Of a stretch of 64,000 bases of DNA, positions 4,501-61,540 are shown piece by piece; position 1 is the stretch's first letter; each line of letters starts with the position of its first letter. The position numbers were made by a program, and so were the translations under genes. Where the stretch lies: contig MEDY01000660.1 in the NCBI GenBank assembly GCA_001724265.1, forward strand, positions 1 through 64,000, given 5' to 3'. The DNA comes from Rhizaria sp. SCN 62-66. Taxonomy: Eukaryota. The notes under the pieces are model-generated. The model ran no database searches. It had not been told where the DNA came from and saw only the letters and a list, made by a program, of their open reading frames with translations.

Positions 4501-4938
4501 TGGGAGGTGTGGTACTACTGCCGCTTCTCGTCGTTCCTCAAGGTCGTGTACCCGTCGCTGCCGCAGCTCTCGGCGCTGCGCGACGCCATCGCCGCCGCGC
4601 GCAAGCAGGAGCCCAAGACGCTGCTGGCGGCCGTCTCGGCGAGCGCCAAGACCGTCGCCGCAGCCGTGGCCGAGGTGCTGGCGGCGTTCCCGGCCGACGG
4701 GGCCGGGCTCTGGGCCGAGCCCGCGCGCGCGGCGCAGAGCGTTGCGGCCGTCGCCAAGGCAAACGCCGGCGGCGCACTGCTCGAGCTGCTCAAGCTCAGC
4801 AAGGACCCCGCGGCCGCGGCCGCCACGGCCGTCGAGTTCGACTTCAGCGCGGACCCCGTGTTCCCGCTTCTGCGGTTTGTGCCGGCGAAACCGGTTAAGG
4901 CCGCTGCGGCGGCGGCGGCGGCTGCCAAGCCCGAGTGA
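1501..4938 (+). CDS. NAA35: N-alpha-acetyltransferase 35, NatC auxiliary subunit (Mak10 family); exons 1501-1596 and 1834-4938, about 1066 aa
   Basis: The spliced N-terminus EEWLDITDEIKAAAVGMSVGQQIVNK|DFNPQKSLVALQLMGGQMDP resembles the Mak10 N-terminal signature (W-DIT...F-L-EAMSA-E-MD-KMD). Also has ALFCCLYLH, ASDVHDESEF, ELLAVYWQL and RFSSF motifs. Stop is TGA. Confidence 0.85.
1597..1833 (+). other. Spliceosomal intron of NAA35 (phase 0)
   Basis: AAG|GTACGT donor, GCTAAT branch-like site near 1784, CACAG acceptor. Removal restores the frame. Confidence 0.85.
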
Positions 4939-5305
4939 GCGAAGAAACAAAAAGCTGTTACGTTGCACTGACAACTGGTTAACTTTATTGGGTATTGATC
5001 GGGCCTGTAATAACACAGGACACTACTTTTATTAAATGAAAACGATATGTAGACGCACAAATAAAAAGACGTTCGTTGTACATCAATTCATGTTATGTTC
5101 TCTTGCGATCAACTCCATGAGGCGTATAAAAAGCGCTATGTAATGTTGTTTTTTTTTGTGCACTGAACAGGGATATACTCATTGGCCAGTCGCAATAAAT
5201 TAAGGTGTGTGCCTCGCAAAAATCCTCGGATGAATGACTGGGCAACAGTGTCTCGGAAGACTTCGACATCGCATCCTCAAACGAAGTGTGAGGTATCCTC
5301 ATAGC

Positions 5306-6423
5306 TCACATGCCCTCGAGTTCGATGCCGGCGGCGCGCAGCTGGCGCATGGCGGCCCAGTGTCCCTGCGTGATCCACGAGGCGAGCGCGGCCTCGCGCT
5401 CCTCCTGCGCCAGCGCGCACGGATACAGCACGGGCGCGGGCAACGGCGCGTCGGTCACCACCACGGGCCCCGTCTCCGGCGGCGCGGGCGCGACGGGGCT
5501 GGGCTGCCGCCAGACGGGGTACACGCGGCGCCCGTCGGAGATGCTGACCAGCGGCAGCCGCGCAGCGTCGCCCTCTGGCGGCGGCGCCAGCGGCTCGTGG
5601 GGCGTCGCGGCGGTGAGGCGTGCAAGCACAGTGGCGGCGGCGACCGAGACGTTGAGAGACTGCGCAAAGCCGCGCATGGGCAGCGTGACGTGCACGTCGG
5701 CCATCGCGGCCGCGGTGCGCGACACGCCGTTGTGCTCGTTGCCGCAGAGCAGCGCGATGCGCCGGTTACTCAGGTCCACGCAACGCAGGTCGACGGCCTT
5801 GGGCGAGAGCGTGGTGGCCACGATAGTGAAGCCGGCGGCCTTAAGCTCAGCGGCGCAGCTCGCGGCGTCGGGGTGCCGGTGCACGGTAAGCCAACGCGCG
5901 TACTCGTAGCTGCTGGGCTGGAAGGGTGACAGCGACTCGATCTGGTGGAAGTGCTGCAGGCCCAGGGACTCGGCGGTGCGCAGCACGGCGTCGATGTTGC
6001 CCGGGTCCGCAACGTTCTCGAACACAACGCGGATGTTGTCGCGGCGGTACTTAAGCACGTCCAAGTACCGCAGCATGCGCTCGGGGCGCGTGTACGGGAT
6101 CAGCGTCTGTCGTTGGAGGCGCATGGGCGATAAATGGGGGGCAGAGCACAGTGAGTCAAGTGAAGGGGGAAGAACACGCAAAAATGAGTGCGGAGGCGTG
6201 GGGGCTGCATAGACGCAGAAAACAACAACGGGTTACGGTGTAACAGCAACAAATTGGTATGCATATACTGTGCTTATCGTCACGTAAAAGAGGTTGCAGG
6301 CGCTATGCCATGCTCAAAGTTGCTTGGAGCGGGTAACTCCAACTTGCAAAAGCCGAGAAGTGAAGAGGTAAGACGTACGTCGATAACGCGGCTGCGGAGA
6401 TGCTTAGGAATTTTGATGAGCAT
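5306..6423 (-). CDS. SpoU/TrmH-family (SPOUT) tRNA/rRNA 2'-O-methyltransferase; exons 6423-6379 and 6106-5306, about 281 aa
   Basis: SPOUT motifs ENVADPGNIDAVLRTAESLG, GNEHNGVS and LPMRGFAQSLNVSVAAA, plus a TrmH-like C-terminal LAQEEREAALASW. Inferred exon 1 MLIKIPKHLRSRVID ends at a GTACGT donor in phase with the GACAG acceptor. Stop is TGA. Confidence 0.85.
6107..6378 (-). other. Intron of the TrmH-like gene (phase 0)
   Basis: GAC|GTACGT ... pyrimidine-rich ... GACAG|ACG on the minus strand; frame-compatible. Confidence 0.7.
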
Positions 6424-6946: not shown

Positions 6947-9900
6947 ATGGCGACGCTGTTCCAGAATGAGGATGCGTCGGCAGCTGTCGTAAAACAGGGC
7001 TGGTTGATCAAGCAGGGTGGCTCGCGTGGCTTCGGCTGGAAGACTTGGAAGCGCCGCTGGTTCGTCCTCACTCTCCAGGGCCTGAGCTACTACGAAAGCG
7101 AAGAGACCTACCGCGCCGGCCACCGCGAGCTTGGTTATCTACACGCCGACGCGACGTTTCACGCTTCGGCGACGCACCCCTCGCTTCCGCCTGACACGGC
7201 CGACGAGGTCCACCTCGTCTTCATCTGCTCCAATCGCACCTTGCTCGTGCGCGCCCGCTCCGACGCCCGCCGCGCGGACTGGCTCGCTGCCGTCGCTGCG
7301 CGCGCCGCCGACCTCCGCAAGCGCGCGCTCCGCCTCTCGGAGCCGTCCTACAACACCATCGACGCCGAGTCCGTTGCCGCAGCCGCTGCCGTGCTCGCCG
7401 CGGCCGCCGCAGCCGCCGGCCCCGCCACTCCGTCTCTCGCGCCCCACGCGAGCGCACACGCCAACTCGGCGCTAATGGGCTCGCCCTCGCGCCTGCGCCT
7501 GGGGTCGATGTTCGCGCCCCCGCAGCGCGGCTACCAACCCTCGCCGTCCTTCACCGCCGCGCCCGCGCCCGTGCACGGTCCCGTGGTCGCGTCCTCGGCG
7601 GCGGCCTACTACGCGCACCTGCTCCCTCAGCAGCAGCTCACGCACTCGCAGTCACTCGTACAGAGCCACCAGCAGCTCGCGCAGACGCAGTCGCAGTGGG
7701 CGCTCGGCCGCAACGCCGCGCCGTCCTTCACGCCGTTGATGCTGGCGCCGCTCAACGCGGTCGCGCCCGGTGCGCCAGTGGCCGTCACCGCTTCAGCCTC
7801 GTCGTCGACGCCGCTGTTTGGCCCCGGGCTGCCCCCCGTCGCTCCCGGCACCGCGCCCGGACGCCTCAGCGCCTCGGCCGCGCGCCCACCCGCCGGCTCG
7901 ATTAGTGCCGCGCTTGTGGGCTCTGGCGCTGCCGCTGGGGGCGCTCTGCAGCTGCCCCCGCAGCACCCGCACCAACAGCAACAGCATGTGCGCGCGCGCA
8001 ATGCGAGCACCATGTGCATTACATCGCCAGTGCCACCGCCCCCGCCCGGGCCTGTGTCTGCGGCAGCGCAGCAGGGCGCGGCTGCGTCCGCTTCACGCGC
8101 GCCGCAGCCGCCGCCGCGGCCGGCGTACGCGCTCGCCCAGATGCAGCAGCACCAGCACATGCAGACGCAGACGCAGACGCAGACGGTGCCCTCGCTGGTG
8201 ACGATGGGCCGGCCGGGCTCCCGCTCGCACTCGCGCGCCGACCCGCCCATCTCGCTGACGGCGGCCGCGGCCGCCGCTGCCGCAGCTGCCGCCGCCGAGG
8301 CCGCTATGGCCGCCGCTGCGGCCGCGACGGAAGCCGGCCTCGACTTCGACAGCGTGAGCGATGATAGCGATAGCGCTGACGAAGGCGACGGTGGCGACTG
8401 CGACGACGCCTGCGATGCTGACGGCGACGGCGACATTGATGACGGTGAGATGTCTGACGACGGCGCCGCGGCTCATGCCAACGCCGACGCTGCTAACGCC
8501 GGGCTCAGTGCTGCGCCTGCGCCATCGGCGACGCTGACGGGCACGCGCGTCACTTCAGGGCAGCGTGTCGGCGGCTGCCACAGCGGGCTTGCAGTGAGCA
8601 GCACAAGAGACGACGACGGCAGCGAGTGCGCCAACGCGGCGACCGCGGGCGACTAGTCCGTCTCCGGCGCGGGCTTTGGCGTAAGTCGCGAACCCAGCGT
8701 CTGCGACACTGCGGCCGTGGCCTCGCCCGGCGCCGACGCGAGCGAAGGGGACGCGCACTCGCCCTCTCTTGCCGCTGCGACTGCATCGTCTTCCTTCGGC
8801 TCCGCAGCTGCTGCTGCTGCAAATGCGCCGGCCACTGCAGCGAACGCGGCACGGCCGCGCACGCACTCGCAGCAGGCGCAGGCGCCGACGGCCGCGCAGA
8901 CGCACGCGCAGGCTCGCGCGCAGGCCCGCTGCAGCGTCGTGGCACTCTCGCCCGCCTCCGTCGGTGGCGCGGCAGCCGCAGCAGCCGCCGCAGCCGCGAC
9001 CGCCGCAATGAGCGCCGCAGTGAGCGCGGACCAGAGCGGGCACGGCTACTACGCGAGCGGCGTGGCGGGCTCGCGGCTGAGCGCGACGTCGAGCCTGGCG
9101 CCCAGCTGGAGCACCGCCGCGGGGCTGCCGACGCTGGCGCCAGCGACCACGGCGCCGCCGCCGACGCTGCCGCACGCGGGGGGCTCGCCCGCGCCGTCGC
9201 ACGCGCACTCGAACACGCACTCGTTCGCGCCTACGCTCGCCGACACCGTCGCGGACACTGTGGCGACCGAGACTGCCGCAGACGCCGCCGTGGCCGCTGG
9301 CGCTGACGCAGACACGCTGTCGGCGCTGCCGTCTGCGGCGGCGCTGCCGTCCGCGGTGACGCTGCGGCCCTCGTCGCGCCAGTCCGTGCTGCACGCGCCG
9401 CACCCGCACCAGCACCCCGCGCTCGCGCCGCGCCAGTCGGTCACGCGCCGCTCCGTGCTGCGCTCCGCGTCGCGCGCCTCGGTCACCGCCACGCCCGGCC
9501 TCAGCGGCACCGGCTCCGGCGCCGCCTCCAAGCGCGGCTCAATCTCGTCCCGCCTGTCCGTGGTGGGCGCCGCGCCGTCGCCGTCGCCGCTGCAGACGCG
9601 GTCGTCGCGCGCGTCGGTCGCGCTGGCGGCCCCGCGGCTTGCATCGCTGTCACTGTGCTACGCGGGCGCCGAGGCCGTGCGTGAGCTGCTCGACGACGAG
9701 GCCGCCGCGCGCGCGCTCGCTCTGCGCGCCATGGAGGCCGTCGCGGAGCCCGCTGCCGCCGACGATAGCTCTGCCGCTGATGTTCCTGTCGCGGATGCAA
9801 ACGCAAACTCTGCTCGCGACAGCGCGACAGAGCGGCAGCAACAGAAGGTGTTCACGCGCACTCGCGGCAGCAGCGCTGATGCTACAGTGCAGCCCCTCAA

Positions 9901-12900
9901 CGTTGCCGCCTCCGACGCCGCCGCTGCCACTGCGACGACGTCGCCGACGTCTGCGACTGCCGCCTCGTTCGCGAGTGCGCTCGCGACTGTGAACGCGCAG
10001 CCCCCGCGCGTGGGCCCGCCCCCGGTGCCGGCGCGCCCTGGCATCTTGCCGCCGCCTCCGCCGCAGCCCCCAGCGCCCCTGTCTCAGCCGCAGTCGATCA
10101 ACCAGCCGCTGCCCGCGCCGCCGCTGACGACTGTGTTTTCGTCCCCCAGCGGCGCTGGCCCGGCTGCGCTCTCCGTGAACCCCGCGAACCCGCCGCCGCC
10201 GCTGCTGCCGGTGCCGTCAATGGGTCAGTGCCCCACCGCCTCGGTCACCGCCTCGGTCACCGGCGCTGGCGCTGGCACTGGCACTGGTACGGGCACTGGA
10301 GGCACACCAGTGGGCACGCCCAGCGGCTCTGTGGCCGCCGCGGCTGCCTTCTTTGGCCCCGCGAAGCAGCGCAGCGCCGCGGCTGTGGCCTCATTCTTCA
10401 CGCCCGCGTCGACCTCTGCGACGCCCGCGGCCTCCGCTGCAGGCAGCGCGTCCGCGACGACGCCGCCGGCCTCCGCTATGACTCCGCCCTCGACTGCGAC
10501 TGCCGCGGCCGCGATGGCTAGCCCCGGGACGCCGGCGATACCATCCAACCGCGCGGCCGGGTATTCGCCGGCGCTCTTTTTCACCCGCGCTGTCTCTGGG
10601 GCATTTGCGCCCGTCGCGCCGCTCAACTCGACCGCCGCTGGCGCTAGCGCTGGCACGGCCGCTGGCGCAGCGCAAGGCGCTGCGGCCTCGCCGGGCGCTG
10701 TCAACGGTACCGGCGCTGGCGCGGCTGCCGGTGGGAGCCCCGGCACTCAGTCGCGCCGTGCAGCGCGCGGCGGCGGCGGCGCGTTTGCACCTGTGCTGTC
10801 GCCAGCGACTACTGTGAGCACTGCGCCTCAGCACCAGGTCTCGTTACTCGACGCCGCCGCGGCCCACGACGACGCCGCCGCGACCGCCGCCGCCGCTGCC
10901 GCGGGTGACACGGCTGCGCGGGGCGCCGACGCGAGCCCTGGTGCGACGGCCGCTGTTTCCCCTGCTGCCGGCGCGGGCGGCACCTCAGCTGCTGCCGGCG
11001 ACGACTGCGCGAGCCCGTGGGACGACGCCGCGATGGGCCTACCCGCGCTGCCTGCGGACCAGGGCCGGTTCCACGCCACGTCGCTGCACGAGTCGTACGT
11101 GTACCACTGCGCTGGGCAGCCCGGCGACGAGGACGGGCTCGGCGCCGCGCCGCGCTTCGCCAAGACGCGCGTGCGCTACGCAGTGCTCTTCGCCAACACG
11201 CTCGAGCTCTACGACGGGCACTACAGCCGCAAGCCTGAGCTGTCGCTGCCACTCTCCCTCGCGGCCAGCGCCGCACCCGCCGCGGCCTGCGTGTGGCCCA
11301 GCGCCGCCGCGGGCGCCGCCGCGCCGCGCTGCCCGACTCTGACGTCGGCCGCGGCGCGCACGGCGCACCGCTCGCTGTTCCTCTGCGTGTCCCCGCCGCG
11401 CCCGGACGCTAACTCGGCCGCCGACGCGCCGTTGCCGCCGCTGATGATGCTGACTGCCAACGCGGCGGCGCGCGACGCTTGGTTCGTGGCGCTGCGCTCC
11501 ACGCGCCTCGTGCACGTCACGCTGCCGCCCGCGCCCGTGCCCTCGACCGCCGCGGCCTCGGCGCTCGCGGCCGCCGCAGTCGCCATGGGCGGCGGCCGCG
11601 GCGGCGCGTCGTTCACCACGGCTTACTCGGAGACGGACAACTCGCCGCTGGTCACGCCCTCGCTCGGCCCCGGCGGCGCGCGCAGCGGCAGTGGCAGTTT
11701 CGTCGGCGGCGGCGCGGGGGGCAGCACTCACTCGCCCGCGGGCGCTGGCGCGCCGCTCTCGGTGGCGAGCTCGCAGACCTCGGTGCCCTCGATGCCGCCG
11801 CTCATCGGCCTCGCGCGCTCCCCGCTCTGGGCGCCGCCCGGCTCGCCCTTTGTCGCCGCCGCTGCAACGGGCTCGGCCACGGCGCTCGCTGCGCCCGCCG
11901 CGGCCGTGAGCGGTGCTGGCTACCCCATGACGCCCGGCACCGTGCATCTGGCCAACTCGGCCGTCGCCACGGCGGCGGGGCGGACCCCCGTGGTCATGCC
12001 CAGCCTCGGCGCCGTGCCGCCCTCCCCAGGGAGCTGGCTCTCGCCCGCCCAGCAGCAGCAGCAGGCGCTGTCCGCCGCGCCGGCGCCCGAGGCGCCGTGT
12101 CTACTGCCGTTCCTCCGCACGCGCGCGGTGCGCGTGGCGCTCGTGACGCTCGCGCAGCGCGCGGCCGACGCGGACGCCGAGGCCGTCGCTGCGGCCAACG
12201 CCGCCGTTGCCGCCTCAAATGCCGCTGCGACCGAGGCCGCTGTCGACGCCGCCGCTGCGGCGGAGGCGGCGGGCACTGCTCCCGCCGCGGTACCGGTGTC
12301 GCCGGTGCTGATGCCAGAGGTCGTGTCGGCGCTGCCCGCGCAGTTCGTGCACAAGGCGCACATGCTGGCGCTGCTCTCGGTAGCGATGCCGCCCGTGCTG
12401 CTGCGCGCGCCCACGGCGGCCAGCGCGGCGGCCGTAGGCGCGGCGTCCACGGCGGCGCTGCCGTCGCTACTAGTCGGGCTGGCGGCCCACGAGGCGCACC
12501 TGCGGCCGCACGCGCCGCTGCCCGTCGCGCTGCCCGCGGCCGTTGCGCGCCCGCTCGCCGCCGTCGTCACCGCGCAGCGCGCCGCGCTGGCCGCCCGCGC
12601 CGCGACGCCGCTGGCGACCGTGGCCGCGCAGCCCGCGCTGCCCGTGGCGCTGGCGCCGCTCTCGTTGCTGCCCGCGGCGCGCGCGCTGTCGGTGGAGCTG
12701 GCGCCGCTGCTGCTGCAGCCGCTGGCGCGCCTGCTGGTCGACCCCGCGCGCGCGGCCGAAATCGATGACATGGTGGCCGCGGCTGACGCCGCCGCGCCCA
12801 CCTTCGCCTCCGTCGGCGGCGCTGGCCTCGGGCTCGCGCTGGGCATGGGGCCCGGCCGGCAGGGGCCCGACTCGGCGGTGTCGTTGCCGCTGCTGCTGTT

Positions 12901-15900
12901 GCGCCTTACAAGCCCTGAGGCCGGGCAGACAGACCCCGCCGCGCACGCCGCGGCGCGCCGCGCGTTCCTGCTCTTCCGCCCGCAGTTTGCGTCCCCGCGC
13001 GCGGTGCTGGCACTGCTGCTGCCGCTCATCGGCACGCACGCGGCCGCGCCCCACGCGCTGGGCCCCGACGGCGCCGCGCTGGTGCCCGTTGCGGCCGACG
13101 TCAGCGCGCCCGTCCCCACGCCCGCGGCGACGCGCGCGCTGGCGGCGTCGCTGCTGCACGACTGGCTCGCGCTGCACCCCGAGGACTTCAGCGAGCTGGG
13201 CGGCCGCCAGGCCGTGCTCGCCGCGTCCGCCGCCGTTACCGTCGCGCTGCCGCCCGCGTCCGCCGCGGCCGCGGCGGCCGTGCCCGCGCCCGCGCCCGCG
13301 CCCGGCGGCGCGCTGCCGCCCGCCGACCTGACGGCACTGCTGGGCTACATGCGCGCAGCCAACGCGGCCGCGAGCCGCGAGCTCTGCGGCGCGCCCACGC
13401 TGCCCGCCGATGTGCGCGAGCGCGCGCGCGGGCACGAGCTGCCCGAGGCCGCGCGCTCGATGGCCTACGATGATGCCGCGCTCGCCGCCGAGGACGCCGC
13501 CGCCGCCGCGGCCGCCGCGCTCGAGACCGCTGCGACTGGCGCTGCCGGTGGTCGCTCTGCTGCGGGCTTGGCGCCGCCGGTGGCCGCGACGCCGGAGCAC
13601 GCAGGCGCGCTTGAGGTGGCCGTGGCAGAGCTGCGGTGTGCGCTCGCGCTCATGCTGCGGCTGTCCAAGACCACGATGACCGAAATCGAGGCCGTCGTCG
13701 TGAACACGCCCTTCGACAACACCGCGCACGCGAGCAGTAAGCGGCTCACTGGCGCGGCGGCCGCGATGGCGCCTCCGACGGCATCGCTGCCGTCGATCAC
13801 CAGCAGCAACGCGCCGTCGGTGGCGCCCCTCGCGGTCAGCCCCGGCGCCGACCGCGCCAGCGCCCACGACGGCGACAGCGCCGACGGCGACGGCGACGGC
13901 GACGGCGGTGGCCACAACAACGTCGCCGCGCCCATGCCGATCCACGCCCCGTCCCCGCGCGCGCTCACCAGCACCGAGCAGCACAAGTCACGCCGCAGCT
14001 CCAAGCGCCCCTCAGCCGCGGGCGGCGCTGCGGGCGGCGAGTCCGCGGGCAGTGGCGGCCGCCAGCGCAGCTCGACGACTGCGACCTTGCCGCCCGATGC
14101 ACTCACGGTCGAGCGCGCCGCCGCCGCGGCCGCAGCCGCAGCCGCCGCGGACCCCGCCGGCCGCGAGCGCGCCGCCACGGCCTCGGCCATGCTCGCGGGC
14201 CCCGCCTCGGCGCGCTCCGCCGTCGGCTCTGGTTCCGGCTCTGGTTCCGGCAGTGACGAGCTGTCGCCGGTCGGTCTGGAACTGGGTCCTGCCGCCGCAG
14301 TGCTGCTGGGGTCCCCTGAGGTGGAGACTGAGGAGGCCCCGTCGCCGCTCGCGCCCGTCGCGGAGGCGTCCGCTGAGGCTGAGGCTGAGGCTGAAGCTTC
14401 CGCTGCCGCTGCCGCTGCCGCTGCTGCTGACCTTGACGCGCGCGTGCGCGCCGAGTCGGAGCACGGTCCGATCCGGCTGGGCCGCGTGCTGCCGCCGCCG
14501 CCGCCGCCGCTGCCGCCCGTCACGGCCGCGATGCGCGACAGACGCCCGCCAAACGTGCAGGTGCCGTTGCCGGTACCGCTGTCGGCCGACGCCGCCGCGA
14601 GCGCTGCGGCCGCGGCGCTGGGCAGCGCGGGCGCGCCGTCGCCCAACTCGGTCGCGCGCACCGCCGCGCTCTTCTCGTTCGGCGCCACCGCCGTGGGGGC
14701 CGCGCCCGCGTCGCCCGGGACCGCTGGGACCGCGGCGGCGGCGGCTGCTGCGACGGCGGCGGCCGCGGCGCAGAGAGAGGTCGCCGCTGCGCGCAGCTGC
14801 GTCATCTCGGCCGCGGACGGCGGCGTGTCGGTCGCGGCGCGGCGCGCGGCGCTGGAGGCGCGGCTGGCACAACACCGCGCCGCGCAGGCCGTGCTGGACG
14901 GCGGCATGCGCGCGCGCGGTAGACCGGCATTCGCGGCGCAGCTGCCGCCGCCGACGCCGCCCTCGGTCGTGTCAGTCGGCACTGGGCCCGCCAGCGCGCC
15001 AGAGCACGGACTGCCCGGCTCGCCTGCCAAGGACAACGCTGCACACAACAACGATAAGTCTGCGGCTGGCTCGCCTGCGCGTGAGGCTGCGACGACGGCA
15101 CCGGAGTCGACGGTGTCGCCTGTCTTCGATCGTGCCGCAGACATCCCCGTCACTCCTGCTACTGCTGCTGGCGCCTCAACTGCGACGGCGGTGGCGAACC
15201 AGCCGCCCACCGAGTCGAGACGCGGGTGCGAGTGGTCCTCGCGCGCGTCGCTGCCCGCTCTGTCGCCCTCCCCCGCGCCCTCGCACGCCTCGACCGCGGC
15301 CACTAGCGGCGGCGGCGGCGGCAACGCGGGGCACAAGCGCAGCAGTCGGCTGCCCGCGGCGCTGGCCGCGACGCGCGACGCCGCCGCCGCCGCCACGGCC
15401 GCCGCGGCCAGCCTGCCCGACGACGACACCAGCGACGAACACTCGCCCGGCTCCAGCCCCACTGCTGCTGCTGCCGCTGCCGCTGCTGCGGCGGCGGCCG
15501 CGAGTAAGCCCGGCACCAACGACAGCGCCGTCAACGGCGGCAGCGACCGCCTTTTTGCGGAAGCGTCCTCCCCATCGCCCGCACCCTCGGCCTCGGGCTC
15601 CGCTGGCGCAGGCTCCGCTGGCGCCTCTGCTGCGGCCTCGGCCGCAGCGTCAGCCTCCGTCTCGGCGCCCGCGTCCTCCGGTGCCGCCGTCTCCGGCTCT
15701 GCCAACGCCGTCTCCCCGAAAACGGCCGTCTCGCCCTCCGCGGCGGCGGCGGCCGGCTTCGGCGCGGTGTCCGCCGCGGCCGTGCGCGCGCGCGCGCCCC
15801 ACGCGGCGCTGCCGGCGCTGCAGTCGGTGGCGCCGCGCGCGCTGGCCGTGGAGCTCACACGGCTCGACCACGCGCTGCTGCTGCGGCTGCGCGCGCGCGA

Positions 15901-48964: not shown

Positions 48965-51900
48965 TTAGAACCAGAGGAAGCCTGACTTCTCGGACGTATC
49001 CCTGTTCTGCGCGCCCGCGCTGCCCTTAACGGGGCTGGAGTTAACCGCGCCGCCCGCGCTCTCGACCTCGTGCAGCGGCCTCGCGTGCGCGCCGACAACG
49101 GGCGAGCTTAACAGCGCGAAGGTGGCCCAGGTGCCCACCTCGATCTTGCTGTGCAAGCGCACCAGCGTCTGCGCCATCTCGCCTGCGCCAGTCACGGCGC
49201 TGCCGCTGCCGCTGCTGCTGGCGCCCGCGTTGGCGGGGGACGCGGGATCCGCAGCGGCGCCGGCGCGCGCGACGATCGACTGCCCGCGCCCGCGCAGGCC
49301 GTTGTTGCCGCCAGCAGCACCCGCACCAGAGCGGAGCCCGCCGACGCCGGCGCCGGCACCGTTGGCCGCAGCCGAATTATAGCGATCGAGCCCGGCGCAA
49401 AGCGGGCACTCCTCGCCCGCCGCCGCGGCGGCCGTCGCCGCCGCCGCGCCGGCGCCGGTGGCGGCCGACTGTGCGAAGCCGCGCGCGCAGTCTGCGTGCC
49501 ACGAGTGGCCGCACGCGTGTACGTGCGCGAGCCCGCCACGGCGCCGCAGCAGCGGGCCGAACAGCGGGCCCGTGCAGCCCTGGCAGCGGCACCCCGCGGC
49601 GGGACCCAGCGCGCGCGCCTGCGCCCGCACGCGGGTCCGCAACAGCCGCGCGCGGTCCTCCGCGAGCAGGCCCAGTGCGGCGCCCAGGTTGCGGCCCTCG
49701 AAGGCGCAGGAGGACAGCATGTCGGTCAGCGAGGCGCGGAAGGGCCCCACGGCGTCGCCCGCGTGGTCGGCTGTGAGCTTCGTGAGCAGCGCGCGCACCG
49801 TGACGTGCCCGTCCATGCCCAGCAGCGCCTGCTGCACCGACCGCGACAGGTGCCATGACAGCAACTGCGACACGGCGGCCAGTGCCGCGCGCGACAGAGA
49901 CGTCGGCAGCCCCGTCGCCGGGTTCACGCCCGCGGCGGCGGCAGAGGCGGCGGCCGCGGAGGCGCCGCGGGCCGCGGGCTTGGCGTCATGAAGCGAAACG
50001 GACAGGCCGAGAGCGGCCAGCGCGGCGGGCGCGGCGTTGCTCGAGTTACCGCCGGCCAGCGCGGGGTCGATCGACTGCGCCTGCGCGTACAGGTGCACGA
50101 GCCCGTCGAGCAGCGCAAACCAGAGGCGTTCTGCGTCCGGCGTGCGCGCGCACAGCGCGGTGCACTGCCCCACGGCGGCGTCGAGCGTGCGCGTGAGATC
50201 GCGCGGCGTCAGCGCCAGCAGCGGCTGCAGCGCCAGCGGGGCCGCGGCCACGGCGGCGTCCACGGCGTCGGCCACGGGCACGGGCGCTGCAGCGGAGCCA
50301 GCGGCGCGCGCGGGCGAGGGGCCGACGGTGGAGAGCTGGCCCGCGGCGATGAGCTCGCGCGCGGCGGCGCCGAGCACGCCCTGCGGCGCAGCGGCGGCAG
50401 TCTGCAGCCCGCCGTCAGGCTTCGGCTGCTGTTGCTGCTGCTGTGCGTCAGAGGCGAGCGCAGCGGCGATGAGCAGCGCGCGCTCGAGCGACTCGCCGGC
50501 GCCCGCGGCGTGGGCGCGCAGCGCGCGCGCGGCGGCCTGGACGGAGCCGAGGTGCAGCCCCAGTGCGGCGGCGACGTCGCCGGTGCGCTCGAGCAGGTAG
50601 GCAGACGCGTCGGCGATGTTGTGTTGCTGACACAGGCGCAGCACGGTGTCGATGTTGTAGCTGTGGTGTGCGAGCAGGTGCGGCAGCACCTTGGCGGGCG
50701 CGTGCACACACAGCAAACGCACGAACTGCTCGTTGAGCTTGGGCGTGAACGGCACACCCGTGGCCTCGAGCAGCTCCGTCAGCGCGGGCTGCGTGTTGCC
50801 GACGCTGAAGGCGGCCATTTCACTCAACGCGCGAGATGTCTTGCCAGTCACCGGCGACAGCATCGGCGCATCCGCAGGAGCACCGGCGGCGGCCGTTGCG
50901 GCGGCAGCAGCAGCGGCCGTCGCGGAGGGCGGAGCACCGGGGGTCGCGTAGGCGTTGTTGCGCGCCGTGGTGGCCATGAACTCGCGCGCCGCCATGAGCG
51001 ACGACAGGTACAGGAACAGCGCCAGGGGGTGGCCCTCGAGCGCCTCGATCACGCGATCGTGCTCGTGCGCCAGGTGCAGCAGCGCAACGCGCGCCGCGCC
51101 GCCGGGGCAGATGCGCACCAGCGAGACGAGGTGGCCCAGCAGTAGCGCGCGCCGGTCGCGGCCGCGGGAGCGCTGCGACAGCGGCTCGCGGGCAAGGTAC
51201 TCGAACAGGTCGCCAGCAAGCCGTGCAGCGCGCGCGCTCAGCACGGGCGCGACGGGCGGCGCGGCGGTCGCAGCGTTGTTGTTTGCATTGTTGTTATTAG
51301 CATTGCTACTGTTCGCGGGTCCGGCGCGGCCGGTCATTGAGGGCGGCAGGAAGGCTGCGTTGAGCGGGTGGAACGACGACTGCGTGCCCTGGTCCTCGAC
51401 GTCGGCGGCGACAACGGCGGCGACGCTGGCGCTGATAACCTTGTCGTAGTCGCGCGCGAGCGTGTACACGACCAGCCCCACGCGAGGCAGCCGCGCGGCC
51501 TCGACCGCGGCCAACACCACGGGCGACGCCGCCACGGACGGCGGCGCGGCGGAGAGGAGCAGGATCGCCTCGTCCTCGCGCTGCTTCAGCGCGTCCGCCT
51601 CGGACACGGCGGCGCTCGCGGCACCGGCAGAGGGCTCCCAGGCAGGCGAGCATGCGAAAAGCACGAGCGCGTGCGCGAGCGCGGGCGGCGCGTCGGCCAG
51701 CGGCACCGCGCGGAGCCGCACGAAGACCTCATACGTGAACGCCAGCGCGGCGAGCGTGCTCGCGGCGGGCCACGGCGCCGCGGCGGCCACGGCGGCGGCC
51801 GAGCCGGGCAGCGGCAGCGCGCCCGCCACGGGGGCTGGCGGCAGCGATGCGCGCAGCAGGGCGACAGCGCGCTCGGCGGCAGCCGCGCTGGCGCCGGCGG

Positions 51901-54900
51901 CGGCGGCGGCGGAAGCTGCGCGGGCGCCAGCGTTGTTCGCGGCGCTGGCGCTGCTGCTCGCGGCACAGGCCGGCACCAGCGAGCGCGAGAGACCCAGCGC
52001 GCGCGACACCGCGGCCAGGTCGTCCCCGGCAGCGGCGGCGGCGGCGGCGGCGGCGGGAGTGCCCTGGGCGAGCGAGAGAGCGGGCGGGAGCGCCGAGGTC
52101 GAGGCGCGCAGCAGCGGGGACCCGGCGGCGGAGTGCGCGGACGCCTGCGGCAGCCCGGTCACGGCGGCCACGATCGCGGCGGCAGACATCTGCTCGCCCG
52201 TCGGGCTGTTACCGTTGCCCGCGGCCACGCTCGCGAGCGTCGGGGCGCGGGGCGCGAAGCCGGCGACGAGGGCGACGTGCGGCGCCACCGCGGCCGCGGC
52301 GGCCACGACAGTGGGCTCGGCGAGCGGGCCGACTGACGCGCGCAAAGAGCCGACGCTGCCGGCAGATCCCGAGCCGCTGGCGCCGAAAGAGCCCGGCTTC
52401 GCAGGCGAACCAATGGGGCCGAAGCGCGGGGTCCGGGCGCTACCACTGCCGGCAGCAGCGCTCGAGCCAGAGCTCGAGCTAGAGCTGCTTCCCCTTGCAG
52501 AAGAGTCCGCCGTCGTGGCGTTGCCTGCAGTAGCGCCGCTGGCGGGGTCGGCGTCGCAGGCGGCAGGCGACGGCATGCGCAGGTTCGCGAGCCCCATCGC
52601 GGATAGCACGGAGAAGACCAGCGCGCGCACGGTCGGCGCGCCGGCCGCGAGGACCTGCGCCAGCGGCACGGCCACAGTCTCGGGCAACGAGTCCGCGCTG
52701 GGGCCCGCTGAGGCGGCCGCGGCAGCGAGGTCGGGCCCGCCCGTGGACACGGCCGGGACGGTGCGCGGGTACAGCAGCGAGGCCGGCGCGGCGGCGCGCG
52801 CGGCGGGTACCGGCGTGAACGCGTACGACGGGTCGCTGACCCAGCCCAGCGCGGCGGCGCCGGCCACGCCCGCGGGCGCCGCGGCGTCGATGGTGGCGAG
52901 CGCGGACCACGAAAGCGGCACGGGCGGCACGAAGCCGGGCAGCACCGAGGCGCCGGCGGGCACCGCGGGGGCGTCGGTGGCCTCGGCCGCGGCCACCACG
53001 GACAGCAGCAGCGCCAGGACGTCGGGCGCGGCGAGACGAAGCGCGAGGGACAGGTACGGGAACGGCCCGCCGGGCAACAGTGGCGCGTTGGACGCGGGCG
53101 CGCCCGTGGGGCCGTCGCAGTAGCTCACCGCGGGCGCCAGCGCGGGCGTGCGCTCGCACAGAAGCGCGAGAACCTGCGCGCGCGCGTGCGCGAGCGCGAG
53201 CGCGGGCGCGGCGCGGGACGGCGGCGCGATGACCGGCCCGCGCGGCTCCACGGCGTTCGAGAAGACGGCGGTGAGCGCGGTGAGCTGTGCGACAGTCGGA
53301 AGCGCGGGCGCGGGAGCCGCGGCGGCGGCGGCGAGCTGAGACTGCGGCAGCAGCGGGCGGCAGACGTACAGAGGCACGGCGCCGGGCCCCGCGAAGGGGA
53401 CGCCGTTGACCGAGGCCGGCTGCGACAGCACGGCGGGATCGCCCGTCACCGCGGCGGCCGCGGCGGCGGAGGCGAGCGCCCAGGGCGCAAAGCCCGGGAA
53501 CATGCGGCCCGAGAGGACCGCGGCCAGGAAGGCCAGCGCGCGTGACAGCACGTTGAGCACGCGCGCGGCCGGCGCGTCCTCGCTCAGCGCCAGCAGCGGC
53601 GCGGTCTCGCCCACAGCGTTGGCGTTGTTGCTGTTATTCGCGATGATGGCGGAAACGGGGTTGAGCGCAAGCAGCACGGCGCGCAGCACCTCGGCGAGGC
53701 CGGTGCGGTAGTCGCCCACGGCGCGCGCAGGCAGCGCGGCGACGGCGGCGGCGAGCCCAGCGCGGCGGGCCAGCGCGAGGAGATGAGGCAGGTCGAGCGC
53801 CCAGACGTGGAGCGAGAGCAGCAGACGCTCCAGCTGCGCGGGCCGCGGCGGCTGCAGCGCCAGCGTCGCGCTAGGACTCACGCCCCCGGAGCTGGCGCCG
53901 CCGGGTGCGCCGACGAGCTTGAGCGCGGCCGTCTCGAGCAGCGCGCGGTCCGCCTGCGGCAGTGCGCCCGCGGAAAGGTACGGCAGCAGCACAGCCTGCA
54001 GCGCCGCCATCGCCGCGGGGCCCGCCTTGGCAAACGTGGGCGCGACGAGACACAGAAGCACGTCGTAGCGGCCCACGCGCACCGCGAAGTCGGCGGCCGC
54101 GGCGGCGATCGTCGTGTACGCGCGCACGTCATCGGCGCTCGCGGGCGCGGACCCGGGGGCAGTGGCGGCCGCGGCGGCCGCGGCGGTCGCGGTAGCCAGC
54201 TCTGCGGGCACAGGACACGTCAGTGCGGCCGCAACACCCGCGCTGGAGCCAGCGCCGCCCCCGAGCGCGGCCGCGGCGGCAGAGGCGGCGGCGGCGGCAG
54301 CGGCGGCGGCGGCGGCGGTGGACGACGGCAGCGCGGCGCGGCGGCGGTCCGACAGGTGGCGCAACGACACGTGCACAAACTGCAGCAAGATGTCGACGAC
54401 GCGGTCCGCCAGCACCGCGCGCAGCGCGCGGCGTGAGCGCGGAAGCCCGACGGGGGCCTTGGCGGCACCGTCGTAAAAGTCGAGCGTGAGCGCGAGCGCG
54501 TCGATCCAGTCCTGCTCGGCGACGAGCGCGACGCGGTCGCCCCAGGCAAGCACGCGCGCGTCGAGCAGCCCCGTGAGCGTGGCGAGCACGAGTGACGAGT
54601 CGCAGCCGCGCACGGCGGGCGCGTAGCTCTTGACGCGCGCAATGCCGCGCTGCTCGGCCGCCGGGAGCGACTGCTGGCGACGCAGCTCCGCGCGGGCCGC
54701 TTCGGGCGACGACGCCACGGTCTGGTCAGGGAAAAACTCGTGGCAGAGCAGCGCGGTGCCAACGGGCAGCGCGAGCGTCTCGATGGGCTGCATCTGCGCG
54801 GGATCAATGGCGACGAGCTGGTTGCGATCAGTCACGGCCACTAGCAGCTGTCCGCCCTGCCAGTGCAACGACACCACGTCGCGGTCCAGGATCACCGCGC

Positions 54901-57402
54901 CCAGCGGGATCAGCCGCAGAGGGACGCCCTCGGCGACGACGCCCGCCGTGGCGGCGCCGGCGCCTACCTCACCCGCGGGCGCGAGCGCGAAAAGCTGCAC
55001 GTGGCCGCCGCGGCCCACGGCCAGCAGCGGGTGCTGCGCCAGCGCCGTCTCCACCGTAAGTGCGGCCACGTCGTCGGCGGACTGCGCCATCGGCACCGGC
55101 ACGGGCGCCGTGGGAGCTGCCGCGGGCGCGGCGGCAAAGGGCGCGAAGAAGGAGGCGAACGCGGAGCTCGCGGAGGTGGACGGACTGGGGTTGCTCCCGC
55201 CGGGGCCCGCGGGGCCGCCGGGAGGGGGTGGCGAGCGCAGGCCTGAGGCCGCGGCAGCCGCGGCGGCGCGGGATGCGGCGGCCGTGGTGGCGGCGTCCGC
55301 GCCGGCGGCGGCGGCAGCGGCGCCCGCGGCGGCCCCCGCGGCGGCGGCCTCCTTGTCGCGCGCGCGCACGGGTCGCCATGCTAAGGAGACGGGGGATCCG
55401 GGACGCGCGGCGGCGTCGCGCGGCACGCGGCAGATGATCTTGACGACAGGCTCGAGCGCGATCAGCAGCGCCATCGTTTCGGTCGCGATCGCAACCAGCG
55501 CGAAGGCGTCGGACGCGTGCGGCGCCGCGGGGGACGCGACAAGCGCGTCCGCGGCGAGCACGTAGCCGGCCTTGCCTTGGATGAGGCACTGATACTGGTG
55601 GGTCCAGGAGAAGGCGAAGAAGGACTTGCTGGCCGTGACCGCCGAGACGGAGCCCTCTGCGTTGACGGCGATGAAATCGACCTTGCCACGCTTGCCACAG
55701 ACGACAGCCGTCACCGGCGAAGTGCCCAGCTCGGTGACCACGCGCAGCAGGGACTTGCCGGCGATGTCCCACAGCACGATGTGGCCGTTCTGGTGGCCCG
55801 CCAGCACGTAGTCGCCGTCAGGAGTGACCGTGAGCGCCGTCACGGCGCCACGCGCGGCGCCGTCGGGCGTGTTGGGCCGCTGCAGCACCGCAGTGACGGT
55901 CTGGAAGTGGTCAAACACGAGCATATGCCCGCGCGACGTGCCGGCCACGATGACGTGCGCGTGCGTCGCCACGCACGTCACGACACCCAGCGCCGCCTTG
56001 GCGCGCTCCAGCTCCGCCGACGACCGGTCCAGCCGCGCCAGCTTGAGAACCGAGACGCCGACGCGCGCGCCGCCCGTGGCGCCGCGGCGGCGCGTCACCG
56101 GCGTGAACGCCGTCGCGGGCGCAGGCGCGGCAGCGGCGCGCACCTCGCGCAGAGCGGCCGCAGCAAGTGTCAGCGGCGTGGGCAGCGTGGCCAGCAGCGC
56201 CTCAACGTCCTCGTCCTCGCGGAGGATCGACGACACGGTGGCCGCGTTGGCGGCGGCGGCGGCGGCAGCGGCGGCGGCCGCGGCCGCGGTGGTCGCAGCG
56301 TTGGTGCTGCTGCTGAGTGCGGACACCGCGGTGGGCGGGCTTAGCGGCAGCGGACCCGACGCGGCCTCGGCCGCAATGGCGTCCGCGGCAGTGGCGCCCG
56401 TGCTGGCTCCCACACCGGCAGCGGCAGTGGCAGCAGCAGCAGCAGCGGCTGCAGCAGGGGCGCCGGTTCTAGCGCCAGCGGCGTTGATGTGAGCGTTTCT
56501 ACCGGCACCGGCGCCGGGGACAACGGGTGAGGTAAGGAACGCGTCGACCGACATCGACGGAGTGCGCTCGCCGAGCGGAGCGGGCCGCCATGAAACCGGC
56601 ACGGACGCGGCGGCCGCGGCGGCCACGGCGGCGGCGGCGTCCGAGGGGTACTTATCCCCGCCGTCGTCTTCGCCGTCGTTGTCGCCGTTCGCGTCCCCAT
56701 CAGCGGCGCTGCTGCTGTTGAGAATGGCGGAGACCGAGACGCCGCGCGGCAGAGGCAGATTGGCTGAGCCGGCGTCGGAGTCTGCGTCTGCGTCTGCGTC
56801 CCCGTCATCACCGTCATTGCCGCCGTCGCCGTCGCCGTCGTCGTCGTCATCGCCGGGGCGCGCGCGGGGACCGGGAATTACAAGCGCGGTGTTGGCGGCG
56901 GCACCGGTGCCGCCGGGCGCGGCTGCGGCTGCGTGGGCCGCAGTGCTGGTCGTGGTTGTGATAGTTGTGATAGTGGTGATGGTGGGGACTTCGGCGCCGT
57001 GGAAGTTGTCGTCGTCCTCGTCGTCGGTCAGGGCGGCGGCGCGCTCAGACTGGGCATGCAGCGCGGACTGCAAGTCACCGGGCTGTGTGTCGCAAAAAGG
57101 GTCGCAGACAAGAAAGGGAGAGAGTGAGAGAGCATAAGCAGGAGATAAGGAGCGAGCGAAGCAGGCAGCAGAGGCGTTAGGCTAAAGCGGAAGACGCGCA
57201 GAGAGGTGGGAAGGCAAAGTATAGCAGACGCAAATAAACGCGGAGATTAAGAGGAGGAAGGAAAACGTACGAGTTCGTCTGCGTCGTCTTCGGCAAGAAT
57301 GGCGTTGACGTCGAGCCCGGCGAGCGCGGTGCCATCGACAGCGGTGTCGTCGAGCTCATGTTCGGCCAAGATGGCGTTCAGATCCTCCTGTGAAGAAGAC
57401 AT
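48965..57402 (-). CDS. VPS8: Vacuolar protein sorting-associated protein 8 (CORVET subunit); exons 57402-57271 and 57082-48965, about 2749 aa
   Basis: WD40 region (IVAGTSRGHMLVFD, AVTALTVTPDGDYVLAGHQNGHIVLWDI), Vps8-like WIDALALTLDFYDG, clathrin-like repeat (FVRLLCVHAPAKVL..ASAYLLERTGD), ERLWFALLD and a C-terminal RING (CQGC..CGHSWHADC..CPLC). Stop is TAA. Confidence 0.88.
57083..57270 (-). other. Intron of VPS8 (phase 0)
   Basis: CTC|GTACGT donor, long pyrimidine tract, CACAG acceptor; joins exon MSSSQEDLNAILAEHEL...DEL in frame. Confidence 0.85.
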
Positions 57403-58013
57403 GATGTTGCGCGCGCAGAAAAGCGGGCCGGCGGAACGCCGAGAAGGGCAGACAGGCTGGGGAAAAGCGTTGGGAAGGTGGAAATGAAAGGGGCCTCACC
57501 ACTGGCAAAGATATGTGATGCTGGGAGTGGGCGAGTCGAGCGGGTCACGAGGGAGCCCCGAGCGAGGTCTATGATCCGTGTGGAGAAATGCGAATAGAAT
57601 AACCAAAAGTGTCTGTAGTGTGAGTATATGTTCATTGAATTATAGCCCTTGCAGACGCAGTTAAGGCATGGATCGTCTTCTTTTTCTACCTCTGACAAGA
57701 GGTCGAAGAAGGTAAGCCGTCCGTCTGGCGGAGCCCGAGTGGTGGCTGGTGGGGAGTAGAGTGTAGAGAGCTTCGAATAGCAGAGCTTGTCTGCAAAGAC
57801 TCCGTTGTTAGCATTATAACTGTTTGATTGGGGTCTTTTTTGTTCTTTTCGATTGTTGTAGCTTATTATTTTTCTCTCAAATCTTATGCATCCCATGTCG
57901 CCTGCTCCCCTCTGCGCCCGTCTAGTGCCCAACCCTGACAGCCGTCGCACCTCGCAGCACACCCCGCGCTACCTTTTACTCAATCCCAGCTTTTCCAGCG
58001 CTCCGCCTGTGGC

Positions 58014-61000
58014 ATGCAGACGTGGTTTACAGACGCGCAGGCGCAGCGCGCACTGCTGCGGCACGCGTCTTATCTCCGGCCCGCTGCCGCCGCCGCGCCG
58101 GGACTGATTGTGTTACGCGAGGACGTCTCCGCGGTGCGCCGCGCTGTCCAGCCCTGGCTCGCTGCGGCCGCGCCTAACGTGCACAACCTCACGCACCTCG
58201 CGCCTGTTGCGGCTGCAGCGCTTGCTGTGTTGCGTGAGACATCAGCACCGCGCCCGAGCTGGCTGCAGCTTTGCGTAACACTGCTTGCGCCACCCATACA
58301 CACCACAGATGCTCACGCAGGAACAGACGTCAACTCAAGCACTGGCGCTAGAAGTGTCACTGGGGTTACTGTGTGCGACGATAAGGCTCTTACAGCGTGG
58401 CTGGCGCGTTTCCGCTTCGTTGAGCTTTTCGCAGAGAGCGACGAAGCCCCCGCGCTCGCCGCTGTCGTCGCACTTAATTCCACACCTGAGACTACCGATG
58501 ATGCCACTAGTGTCTGCGCTGGTTCAGTGCCACGCGCGGTGTTTTGTGGCGAATTTCCTTTGTCTATGGACGAGACTAAGGCCGAGATGCGGCCTGTCCG
58601 CATGGAGAGCTGGGAGAAGCTATTCCTCAGTAGTAGCAATTCTGCCTCGAACTTTACTGTAGCGTCTACGTCGTCCTCTGAGACTGCGGATGCGCACGCC
58701 AGTGACATTGACGACGACAATGATGCTGAGGATAATGAGGATGACGGCAATGCAGCCAAGTATGCGAACACCGATCTAGCTGACCTCGACAGCACCCTAT
58801 ACGACGGCATCGGTGGCGACATTGATGACCACGATGCGAGCGACGACGCCGGCACTCAACAGGGTAACGACACCGCAGCCCCCGTTGGCTCCACTGCGCG
58901 TTCTCTCTCACGCGTCAGTGTGCTTACTGAGCGTAACCTGCGGCTTGCGCGCGGAGTGTCGTTTCTGCCGGGGCATGCATTCGCGGGTGGCGGCCGCTTC
59001 GACTCGACGCTTGCCATTGCAACGAACAACACCAAAGCAGAACCCCCGTTTACTGACAACAAGGTCGGGGCTACAGCGAGTAACGACAACGCTGCCATAG
59101 CTCTACTTGCGTCTCTGACCTCAACCGATATCTGTCAGCACGACTCAAGTCCCGCTGCGCCCAGCACTGGCTCTGCCCTCAGCGCTGCTCTTAGTACTGG
59201 TGGACCCGTGGTGCCCGCGCGGTTCTCCTTCGTGGAGCTCTTTGCTGGCGTTGGCGGCTTCCGCCTCGGGCTGCAGGCGCTGGGCGGCGTGTGCGTGGCT
59301 GCGTGCGAGATCGAGCACAACGCACGCGCAGCGTACGCGGCCGCGCACGGCGCTGCCGCGACGGCCGAGGCCGTGAACAGCCAGAGCGATCGGTGGATGG
59401 AGACGCCGCTCGAGAGCGAAATGCGGGGCATTGCGCAAACTTTGTCTGCTCCGATGCACGACACGTACGGCGGCAACGGCACTAATGGCAAAAGCACTGT
59501 TTCACCGTCAGCCAGCTCAGTGATTGACGCCTCGTTCATGTCCCTCTCTGCGCTGAAGCGAGCCATTACGGACAACATCGCTCTCCGCACCGCTGCCAAC
59601 AACGCGCAGAGCGATGCCAACGGCACTGTGAGCGCCACTGAGAGCGCTCGTGGTGGCGAGAGCACGCTGGTTCCGGTGCCGGCGCTGTTGTTTCCCGACG
59701 TGACCGCGCTGCCCGGCGCGTGGCTGCCCCCGCACGCCGTGCTCACCGCCGGCTTCCCCTGCCAGCCCTTCTCGCGGCTCGGCGCGCAGCCCGGTATGGG
59801 GGACCGCAAGAAGGGGGCGCTCTTCCTCCACGTTGCGCGGCTTGCCGCGGAGTGTAAGCCGCCCGTGGTGCTGCTGGAGAACGTGCCCGGTCTCGTCACC
59901 ATCGACAACTGCAAGGTAAGCGCTCTATCGCATTTCTCTTTCACTTCGAACGTGGTTTTGTTGCGTATGTTACACAGTTTATTTGTTTTCAAACTCACTG
60001 ATTTAAACCTCTTATCTTTGAATGAATTGATCTTGTTTGCCGTCTCTCACTAGACGCTGCTTACGGTGCTGCGCGCCCTGACGCGCGCTGGGTACTCGGT
60101 CGCGTACCGTGTCGCAGACGCCCAGGCCCTTGTGCCTCAAGTCCGGTACGGCTACACTCTGTGGAAAACAAAGACAATGTGTCCCGAATCATTTGAGCAC
60201 GACCTGTGTCTCCGAACTCGCGTGCTCTTATTCTCTCTCACTGTTTGTACATTTGCCTTTTCCGATCCTTCCATAGCCGTCGCATCTACATTGTCGGTCT
60301 GCGCACCGACCTTCTGCCCTCTCGCCACAACATCACTAAGGGCACTGGCAACGCGGAAAGCGCGGACAGCACTGCTCTCGACGACCTCGCCCGCTACCGC
60401 TTCCCCGCTCTGCCCGCGCTTGCCCGCCCCATCGGCTCGTCGCTCGCGCCCCAGCGCGCGCTGCAGCCGCGCCACATTGTGCCCCTGCCGCGCTGGCGCG
60501 CGTTGACCGCGCGCTCGCCCTTCGTCACCACGCCGGCGTGGAAGCTAAGCCGCCCCGCGGAGCCCGCGGGCACGCTTGTGACTGGGTACCGCCGCAGCTA
60601 CGCGTTCTCGGCTCAGCTCGTGCCGCTGGACAAAGAGAGCGTGACTGAGATGACGCCGGCGGCGCGGGACGCTCTGCAGCTGACAGTCGGCTCACAGTCT
60701 CAGGTCCAGCTGGTCGAAACCCAGTCGTAGTCGCCGTTGCCTGCGGACTGGGCGGACGCCGACGCGCGCGCGGAGGCCGCTAGCGGCTTGACTTCTCTGC
60801 GCACGCAGCACCCGCACCTGCCGTGGGGCGTGCGGTGGTTTACTGAGCGCGAGTGTGCGCGCATTATGGGGTTCCCTGAGGCCATGGCGCTGCCGGGCAT
60901 GCCGGTGGCCACGACGACTCCTGCTCAAGACTCTGGAGCGAGTGCTAGTGGCGAGAGTGAGAGAGACGGTGAGCGCGGGCCGACGGTCAAGCGGGCCCGG

Positions 61001-61540
61001 CAAGCGCCTGCCGCTGCGTCTGCTACTGACGCTGCAGTCGCGACTGGAACTGCACAGGCAGATGCTGCTGCGGCTGACAATAGCACCAACAGCAAGAGCT
61101 CTAGCGCAAACAGCAAGAACAACAAGCTCAAGACCACCACGGCTAACACTGCTGTCAAGAGCAAGACCACTGTCGCTGGCACTGGCTCTGACTCTGGCGC
61201 CGACGCCGACTCCGAGGCGGCCCTCGGCAGTGTGGCATATGGTCTACTCGGCAACGCCGTGTGTCCGCCCGTCATTGCCGCGCTGGGCGGCACCGTGCTC
61301 GCGCTGCTGTGGGGCCGTCGCTCTCTTGCTGAGGCCGCAGAGAGTGGCAACAGCGACGGCACGGAGCCGCTAACGGTGACCGTGGGCATGAGTATCGAGG
61401 ACGCGGCGGCCGCGGGGCGCACTGCGGCAGTGAAGCTGGCGCTCGCGGCCGCGCAAGCGGGGGAGCGCGAGAGCATTGTCGCGCGACTGGCAGAGGTCGT
61501 GCAACTGGAGCGGCTGCAGCAGCAACCGAAGCAGCAGTGA
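58014..61540 (+). CDS. C5 cytosine DNA methyltransferase (Dcm/DNMT6-like, no DNMT1/3 accessory domains recognised); exons 58014-59915, 60054-60145 and 60277-61540, with an in-frame TAG at 60728-60730
   Basis: Motifs in canonical order: I FSFVELFAGVGGF, II ACEIE, IV LTAGFPCQPFS, VI LLENVPGL, VIII VPQVRRRIYIVG (formed by splicing), IX RWFTERECARIMGFP, X AYGLLGNAVCPP. The start is uncertain because an upstream exon is possible. Stop is TGA. Confidence 0.85.
59916..60053 (+). other. Intron of the DNA methyltransferase gene (phase 0)
   Basis: AAG|GTAAGC donor, T-rich body, CACTAG acceptor. Confidence 0.85.
60146..60276 (+). other. Intron of the DNA methyltransferase gene (phase 2)
   Basis: CG|GTACGG ... 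CCATAG|C; removal rebuilds motif VIII PQVRRRIYIVG. Confidence 0.88.

Follow-up and report, generated by a model that had tools for sequence, protein, structure and literature searches.

Does the triplet TAG still end translation in the organism from which contig MEDY01000660.1 derives, an uncultured, GC-rich protist of wastewater? The stretch analyzed here, which we refer to as the window, comprises positions 1 to 64,000 of this contig (64,000 nucleotides; GenBank assembly GCA_001724265.1, Rhizaria sp. SCN 62-66). It contains two genes that are each interrupted by a TAG codon: a gene encoding PH and RasGEF domains, and a gene encoding a C5 DNA methyltransferase (DNMT). In the 15 gene models of the window, which together comprise 18,168 codons, the TAGs at positions 8654 and 60728 are the only in-frame stop codons; TAA and TGA were not found in frame, and there are no frameshifts. 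Moreover, none of the 13 complete genes, which were used for the terminator tally, ends in TAG. The observation is real: both TAGs are present in the DNA, in frame, within single genes and outside introns. It is compatible with two possibilities, namely that the TAGs are nonsense alleles under the standard code, which we tentatively prefer, and that UAG is translated in this organism.

The two in-frame TAG codons

The first TAG (8654-8656, plus strand) is codon 570 of a frame of 3596 codons (6947-17737, plus strand) that ends in TAA. This frame encodes an N-terminal PH domain, a second PH-like domain, a RasGEF-N-like domain and a C-terminal RasGEF domain. Of these, PH and RasGEF were detected by Pfam. 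The sequence around the TAG reads GGC GAC TAG TCC GTC (protein ..TAGD*SVSG..), and the open reading frame (ORF) that it ends shares one common frame with the ORF that runs on to 17737. Firstly, no low-GC spacer lies downstream of this TAG, whereas such a spacer, 400 nt or longer and with a GC content of 0.39-0.49, marks each of the 13 true gene boundaries. Secondly, 11 other genes of the window were used to train a codon-usage model, and this model gave frame 0 the best score in every 150-nt segment on either side of both TAGs. The GC content remains 0.65-0.79 across both sites, and that of third codon positions (GC3) marks both flanks as coding. Thirdly, a phmmer search of 1.84 billion representatives yielded P0135, a single protein of 2038 amino acids (aa) with the domains PH, PH, RasGEF_N and RasGEF according to Pfam, which is collinear with the frame of the window in six segments, on either side of codon 570. 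The TAG itself is located inside an Ala/Ser-rich linker that cannot be aligned and that separates the first PH domain, which extends to aa 132, from the second, which starts at aa 1373. A phmmer search with 1200 aa across the site gave 122 hits, all of them matches to PH domains and none with an E value below 1e-30; in none of them did the alignment cross the TAG. An exact look-up of the 569-aa and 2909-aa ORFs in the protein collection returned no match, which is uninformative. Because there is no spacer, the frame is the same on both sides and P0135 is one collinear fused protein, the view that TAG 8654 interrupts a single PH...RasGEF gene is well supported by sequence comparison.

The immediate surroundings of this site (8650-8686, plus strand) have two other features: the TAG is part of a palindrome, ACTAGT, and 25 nt downstream there is a GTAAGT that resembles a consensus donor. 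Neither of these removes the TAG.

The second TAG (60728-60730, plus strand) is located in the DNMT gene (58014-61540, plus strand), which is composed of exons 58014-59915, 60054-60145 and 60277-61540, and ends in TGA. Exon 1 encodes motifs I, IV and VI, the sequence of motif VIII is divided between exons 2 and 3, and the TAG precedes motifs IX and X; it lies in the variable linker that joins motif IX to motif VIII (context CAG TCG TAG TCG CCG; protein ..ETQS*SPLP..). In DNMT homologues, the shortest such linkers have about 10 residues and the longest about 85. All DNMT motifs are intact, and Pfam PF00145 gives matches before as well as after the TAG; that a single DNMT gene is interrupted here is well supported. 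The initial annotation of the window had described two TAGs, each followed by a serine codon (TCC and TCG, respectively) and by a long open frame carrying domains, and both the sequence and the homologues agree with this description.

The sequence of the window recurs in runs from bioreactors, wastewater and activated sludge. The comparison with contigs from such runs covered positions 44001-64000, and hence the second site. A 4635-nt contig of run X2, which spans 56610-61244 and includes TAG 60728, has no differences from the window. Run X2 represents a second sample, collected one year later within the study that is the probable source of the contig; run X3 has an identical contig set, probably the same data filed twice, and the two were counted as one data set. 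Since a contig from a second sample reproduces the site without a difference, TAG 60728 is not an assembly error. Among the contigs listed for run X4, the sequence ends at 60560 and resumes at 60772, and neither of the pieces listed for run X5, a polyA metatranscriptome (57723-58168 and 61187-61590), crosses this TAG. For the first site, a 30-mer beside the TAG had no exact matches in the JGI metagenome contigs.

Three GT-AG introns could be defined in the window. Intron 1 of the DNMT gene (59916-60053, plus strand) is 138 nt long, has the ends GTAAGC...CACTAG and a GC content of 0.37. Intron 2 (60146-60276, plus strand; 131 nt, GTACGG...CCATAG) is a phase-2 intron located within motif VIII (QxRxR), and its splicing recreates this motif as Q-V-R-R-R-I-Y-I-V-G, judging from the sequence and the homologues. 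The third intron (57083-57270, minus strand; 188 nt, GTACGT...ACACAG) belongs to a VPS8-like gene, which starts at ATG 57402 with a first exon of 44 codons (57271-57402) and, after the intron, continues in frame to 48965 (minus strand). These introns of 131-188 nt have a GC content of 0.37-0.52, GTA[AC]G donors and pyrimidine-rich tails, and two of the three end in TAG. Around the in-frame TAGs there are 78 in-frame GT...AG candidates at the first site and 190 at the second. The twelve best-ranked candidates per site all have a GC content of 0.67-0.75, and none of them has a full GTA[AC]G donor, the best matching two of three. Splicing-out of the TAGs had been named as a refuting outcome by the initial annotation; none of these best-ranked segments over either TAG resembles the introns of this genome, and both TAGs are located outside introns. 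The gene models proposed at that stage need correction in that GT-AG introns are present, the DNMT gene consists of three exons and the VPS8-like gene has an extra 5' exon.

Another TAG, upstream of the long ORF of the VPS8-like gene, was considered as a third case and rejected: it lies in the intron at 57083-57270 and has no bearing on the code. Reading TAG as sense falsely extends the VPS8-like ORF through this intron.

The tally of terminators confirms that the 13 complete genes end in TGA (nine) or TAA (four) and never in TAG. TGA terminates the genes encoding NAA35 (4936-4938, plus strand), the SpoU/TrmH-like protein, the signal-peptide peptidase, the PRKCSH/MRH protein, a hypothetical protein, the "surface" ORF, the "Nup" ORF, SPB1 and DNMT. 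Besides that of NAA35, these terminators are located at 19939-19941, 40376-40378, 43211-43213 and 61538-61540 on the plus strand, and at 5306-5308, 23607-23609, 27990-27992 and 43722-43724 on the minus strand, and a low-GC spacer follows each of the nine. TAA terminates the RasGEF gene (17735-17737, plus strand) and the genes encoding XPNPEP, POLR1C and the VPS8-like ORF (21010-21012, 47336-47338 and 48965-48967, minus strand). The C-termini of RasGEF, XPNPEP and POLR1C match those of homologues or the ends of full-length Pfam domains. The 18 ORFs of at least 50 aa in the spacers all score as non-coding, and no credible additional gene ending in TAG was found there.

With respect to its other features, the window belongs to a eukaryotic contig with a GC content of 0.54-0.79 per 2 kb, and its genes are long, mostly without introns and rich in low-complexity sequence, with low-GC spacers in between. 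Most of the gene names given initially are backed by Pfam, which gave matches to NAA35, SpoU, PH, RasGEF, Peptidase_A22B, M24/XPNPEP, PRKCSH, Spb1, RNA_pol_L/A and DNA_methylase; the labels "Nup", "surface", "hypothetical" and "VPS8" received no confirmation. No Pfam match was obtained for the long ORFs at 27990-33335 (minus strand), 41153-43213 and 62090-64000 (both plus strand); a fourth long ORF is the putative "surface" protein (34181-40378, plus strand; 2065 aa). ARAGORN and Rfam detected no tRNA genes in the window, nor was any other Rfam family found in it, and the gene for the release factor eRF1 lies elsewhere. Two 3-base deletions with respect to the window were seen near its right edge, one at 63494 in all four runs compared and one at 63773 in X4, X2 and X3; these would be in-frame length variants of the low-complexity gene located there (plus strand). 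Finally, regions 56600-57340 and 63344-64000 had a very high summed contig depth in all runs compared, with many loose repeat ends of the GCG/GAC type. This depth probably stems from low-complexity repeats in coding sequence that other organisms have as well, and not from copy number.

Codon counts and the standard code

TAG acts as a forbidden codon in frame, which supports the standard code. On the basis of position-specific composition, about 119 in-frame TAGs would be expected in the 12,262 codons of the training genes; none was observed, and TAC was counted 185 times. In frame, the frequency of TAG is lower by a factor of at least 100 than that of an ordinary codon with the same composition. 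The off-frame counts of TAG were 23 and 21.

The observation that both interrupting codons are TAG does not require a special code, because 73-74% of the one-step nonsense paths in this codon usage yield TAG; the probability that two nonsense events both produce TAG is about 0.54. The absence of TAG among the terminators is, by itself, marginal evidence: for none in 13, p is about 0.04-0.055 if the share of TAG is taken as 20-22%, which is the share of this triplet among stop triplets in the window and in the spacers. In addition, the window was picked from a very large scan for precisely this pattern, so that some chance cases would be expected.

The counts also bear on the proposal of the initial annotation that UAG may be a rare sense codon, with glutamine fitting the contexts. 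CAG is used 502 times; with TAG as its free synonym, some 48 TAGs would be predicted from the TTG:CTG ratio of 76:796. That proposal came with the caveat that there were only two TAGs in about 18,000 codons, both in unconserved linkers; there are two in 18,168 codons, and both sites are unalignable with P0135, P0008 and P0010. It should be noted that unconserved linkers make up most of both long TAG-carrying genes. Because both sites lie in such unalignable linkers, no amino acid can be inferred for UAG. The assignment to glutamine has no support past mutational proximity, and leucine is equally open.

The reading that we prefer, with a confidence that falls slightly short of even, is that the standard code applies and that the TAGs are two young nonsense alleles. 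According to this reading, both TAGs would be real premature stops at which, we infer, translation ends, each one base change away from abundant codons such as CAG, TCG, GAG or AAG. The alleles would be carried by the strain dominating the sampled reactors, and not enough time would have passed since the mutations for the frames behind them to decay. That TAG is missing from the 13 terminators would then result from the small sample combined with the general scarcity of the TAG triplet.

Several findings weigh against this reading. Two of the 15 genes in 64 kb would be broken in a sequence that is otherwise flawless, without a single frameshift, TAA or TGA in its 18,168 codons. In a free-living clone, broken genes would be expected at roughly 0.3-1.5% per gene, far below two in 15. 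Furthermore, the frames behind both TAGs are fully intact. The frame remains open for 3,026 codons downstream of TAG 8654 and for 269 codons downstream of TAG 60728, the latter including motifs IX (RECARIMGFPE) and X (GNAVCPPV), which are nearly identical to those of the homologues P0008 to P0010. The first in-frame methionine after TAG 60728 is located inside motif IX, and the C-terminal part of the DNMT can therefore not be made alone. Finally, TAG 60728 was identical in the sample taken a year later, and no ORF corresponding to a sense allele that reads through this site was found among proteins of 231-735 aa, a result limited by this length window and by the content of the database; the search at this site gave four hits, and the sole near-identical one begins after the TAG.

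Possible translation of UAG and other explanations

The best-surviving alternative to nonsense alleles is that UAG is translated, either as a nearly unassigned codon that has lost efficient termination and is being recaptured as a rare sense codon, in an early-stage reassignment of UAG alone to Leu or Gln, or by strong and constitutive read-through. The two interrupted genes would then both give proteins of full length. We regard this as possible but rather doubtful. It would fit the coding in the same frame, and the GC content of 0.65-0.79, that continue past both TAGs, as well as the continuous PH...RasGEF protein P0135 and the need of a DNMT for motifs IX and X, which here lie behind the TAG. 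It would also fit the lack of TAG among the 13 terminators, the lack of any other disabling lesion in the 18,168 codons and the stability of the second site in a second sample.

The phylogenetic position of the contig may point in the same direction. According to the passages of Panek et al. (2017, PMC5304391) on which we draw, the transcriptome of Lygus hesperus contains sequences of a sainouroid rhizarian, exLh, in which UAG encodes Leu. For POLR1C of the window (47336-48442, minus strand), relatives from metagenomes share 66-81% identity, and species-labelled matches share at most 57%; for XPNPEP, among the best 120 hits, these values are 69-76% and at most 46%. We constructed a FastTree phylogeny of POLR1C with 59 sequences (P0011-P0059 plus ten later rows) selected from the 120 listed. 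The clade containing the window copy (n = 10) is sister, with an SH-like support of 99, to a clade of eight that includes P0096, a UniRef sequence labelled Lygus hesperus. Judging from its place among protist sequences in this one quick tree of one gene, P0096 probably belongs to exLh. The sister position hints at an undescribed rhizarian lineage as the source of the contig. Because the tree places the lineage of the window beside a clade with a probable exLh sequence, it raises the prior for a translated UAG.

The link to exLh, on the other hand, depends on one gene, one fast tree and the presumed origin of P0096, and the XPNPEP search gave no Lygus-labelled protein among the best 120 hits. 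The best-scoring protist name among these 120 was Plasmodiophora, with 46% identity, level with several fungi. A scan of metagenome contigs for POLR1C yielded 23 loci, of which a single one is close to the window copy (81% identity over 1.3 kb); none of the other 22 falls in the window clade or in the clade on the exLh side, and no relative was found in a scan of genome contigs. The POLR1C gene at the close locus ends in TAA, as does that of the window, which is uninformative with respect to TAG.

The codon counts do not favour translation of UAG. As reported in the same passages (PMC5304391), 384 in-frame UAGs were counted in 71 genes of exLh, and Leu was found at 82 of 86 hyperconserved UAG positions, whereas the 18,168 codons of the window include two TAGs, both at positions that cannot be aligned. 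In the fornicate Iotanema spirale, where UAG encodes Gln and UAA is the main stop codon, UAG accounts for about 8% of the Gln codons (PMC5304391). Since TAG is rare in frame and absent from conserved positions in the window, the counts argue against an established UAG reassignment of the exLh or Iotanema type. Of the claim that UAG is a sense codon, what stands is that the TAGs interrupt single genes and end none of 13; a reassignment that is already established is excluded by the counts. Furthermore, nonsense alleles also predict a TAG-only pattern, and the terminator tally is underpowered. No tRNA(CUA) gene is present in the window, which holds no tRNA gene whatsoever.

A specific form of translation that we consider unlikely is an early "codon capture". 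In this case, UAG would have been purged as a terminator and be poorly read by the release factor eRF1, and it would now be reappearing as a rare Leu or Gln codon in the unconstrained linkers of long genes, possibly in a relative of exLh.

Another explanation, which we consider improbable, is that the TAGs are bypassed by RNA processing, for instance through GC-rich introns that use the AG of the TAG itself as acceptor, through alternative transcripts or through editing. This genome does splice, as evidenced by the three GT-AG introns, two of them ending in TAG; both in-frame TAGs are formally usable as acceptors, and in-frame candidates exist. The best of these candidates, however, are GC-rich (0.67-0.75) and lack a full donor, unlike the known introns, and the flanks of the TAGs are coding in one frame.

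Least probable of all is a consensus error at the first site or a mis-model in which an ordinary TAG terminator separates two adjacent genes, one with the PH ORF and one with the RasGEF ORF: the second sample covers the second site alone, the 30-mer beside the first site was unmatched in the JGI contigs and an ATG follows at 9008, but no spacer follows TAG 8654, frame and codon usage continue past it, the homologue is fused and the second site is no assembly error.

Significance and comparison with known systems

To our knowledge, very few nuclear codes have changed in the meaning of UAG alone, and in every case described the change is fully established. If UAG in the window were indeed almost unused, never terminating and newly in frame, it would represent a natural intermediate of stop-codon capture, and if the lineage were also related to exLh, it would date the capture event. 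Standard-code annotation would then split or truncate genes in this lineage. If, on the other hand, the TAGs are ordinary nonsense alleles, the case is routine, and it calls for caution in annotating metagenome-derived eukaryotic contigs.

Programmed read-through of UAG occurs in the tobamovirus replicase and in retroviral gag-pol. The two genes described here resemble these systems in that an essential downstream domain is located behind a single UAG. They differ from them in that neither TAG is found in a context such as UAG-CAR-YYA; each site has the sequence TAG-TC, which we do not know as a read-through signal.

With Iotanema, as far as it is described in the passages of Panek et al. (2017, PMC5304391) used here, the window would share a change limited to UAG and an amino acid, Gln, that is one C>T step away from CAG, an abundant codon in the window (502 codons). 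It differs in that TAG would constitute about 0.4% of the Gln codons (two versus 555 CAG plus CAA), and there is no evidence that the two organisms are related.

The comparison with exLh is closer. In the part of that paper dealing with terminators, exLh uses UAA 56 times and UGA 15 times, with no UAG, and in its relative Guttulinopsis UAA is the stop codon in all but one of the available transcripts (PMC5304391). As in exLh described there, UAG is the sole stop triplet found in frame in the window and the 13 terminators tallied are UAA and UGA, and the two may be phylogenetic neighbours. The window differs from it in having two TAGs in 18,168 codons, present in two of 15 genes and neither at a conserved position. 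In our literature search, we found neither a description of an altered UAG in a wastewater or GC-rich protist nor a paper on the sainouroid code that postdates Panek et al. (2017).

Finally, young nonsense alleles of wild microbial eukaryotes, the reading that we prefer, differ from the case described here in that two of 15 genes are hit, frameshifts are absent and one allele is stable across samples. The likeness lies in the form of the lesions themselves: a single premature stop per gene, an intact frame and a type of stop codon that is favoured by the codon usage.

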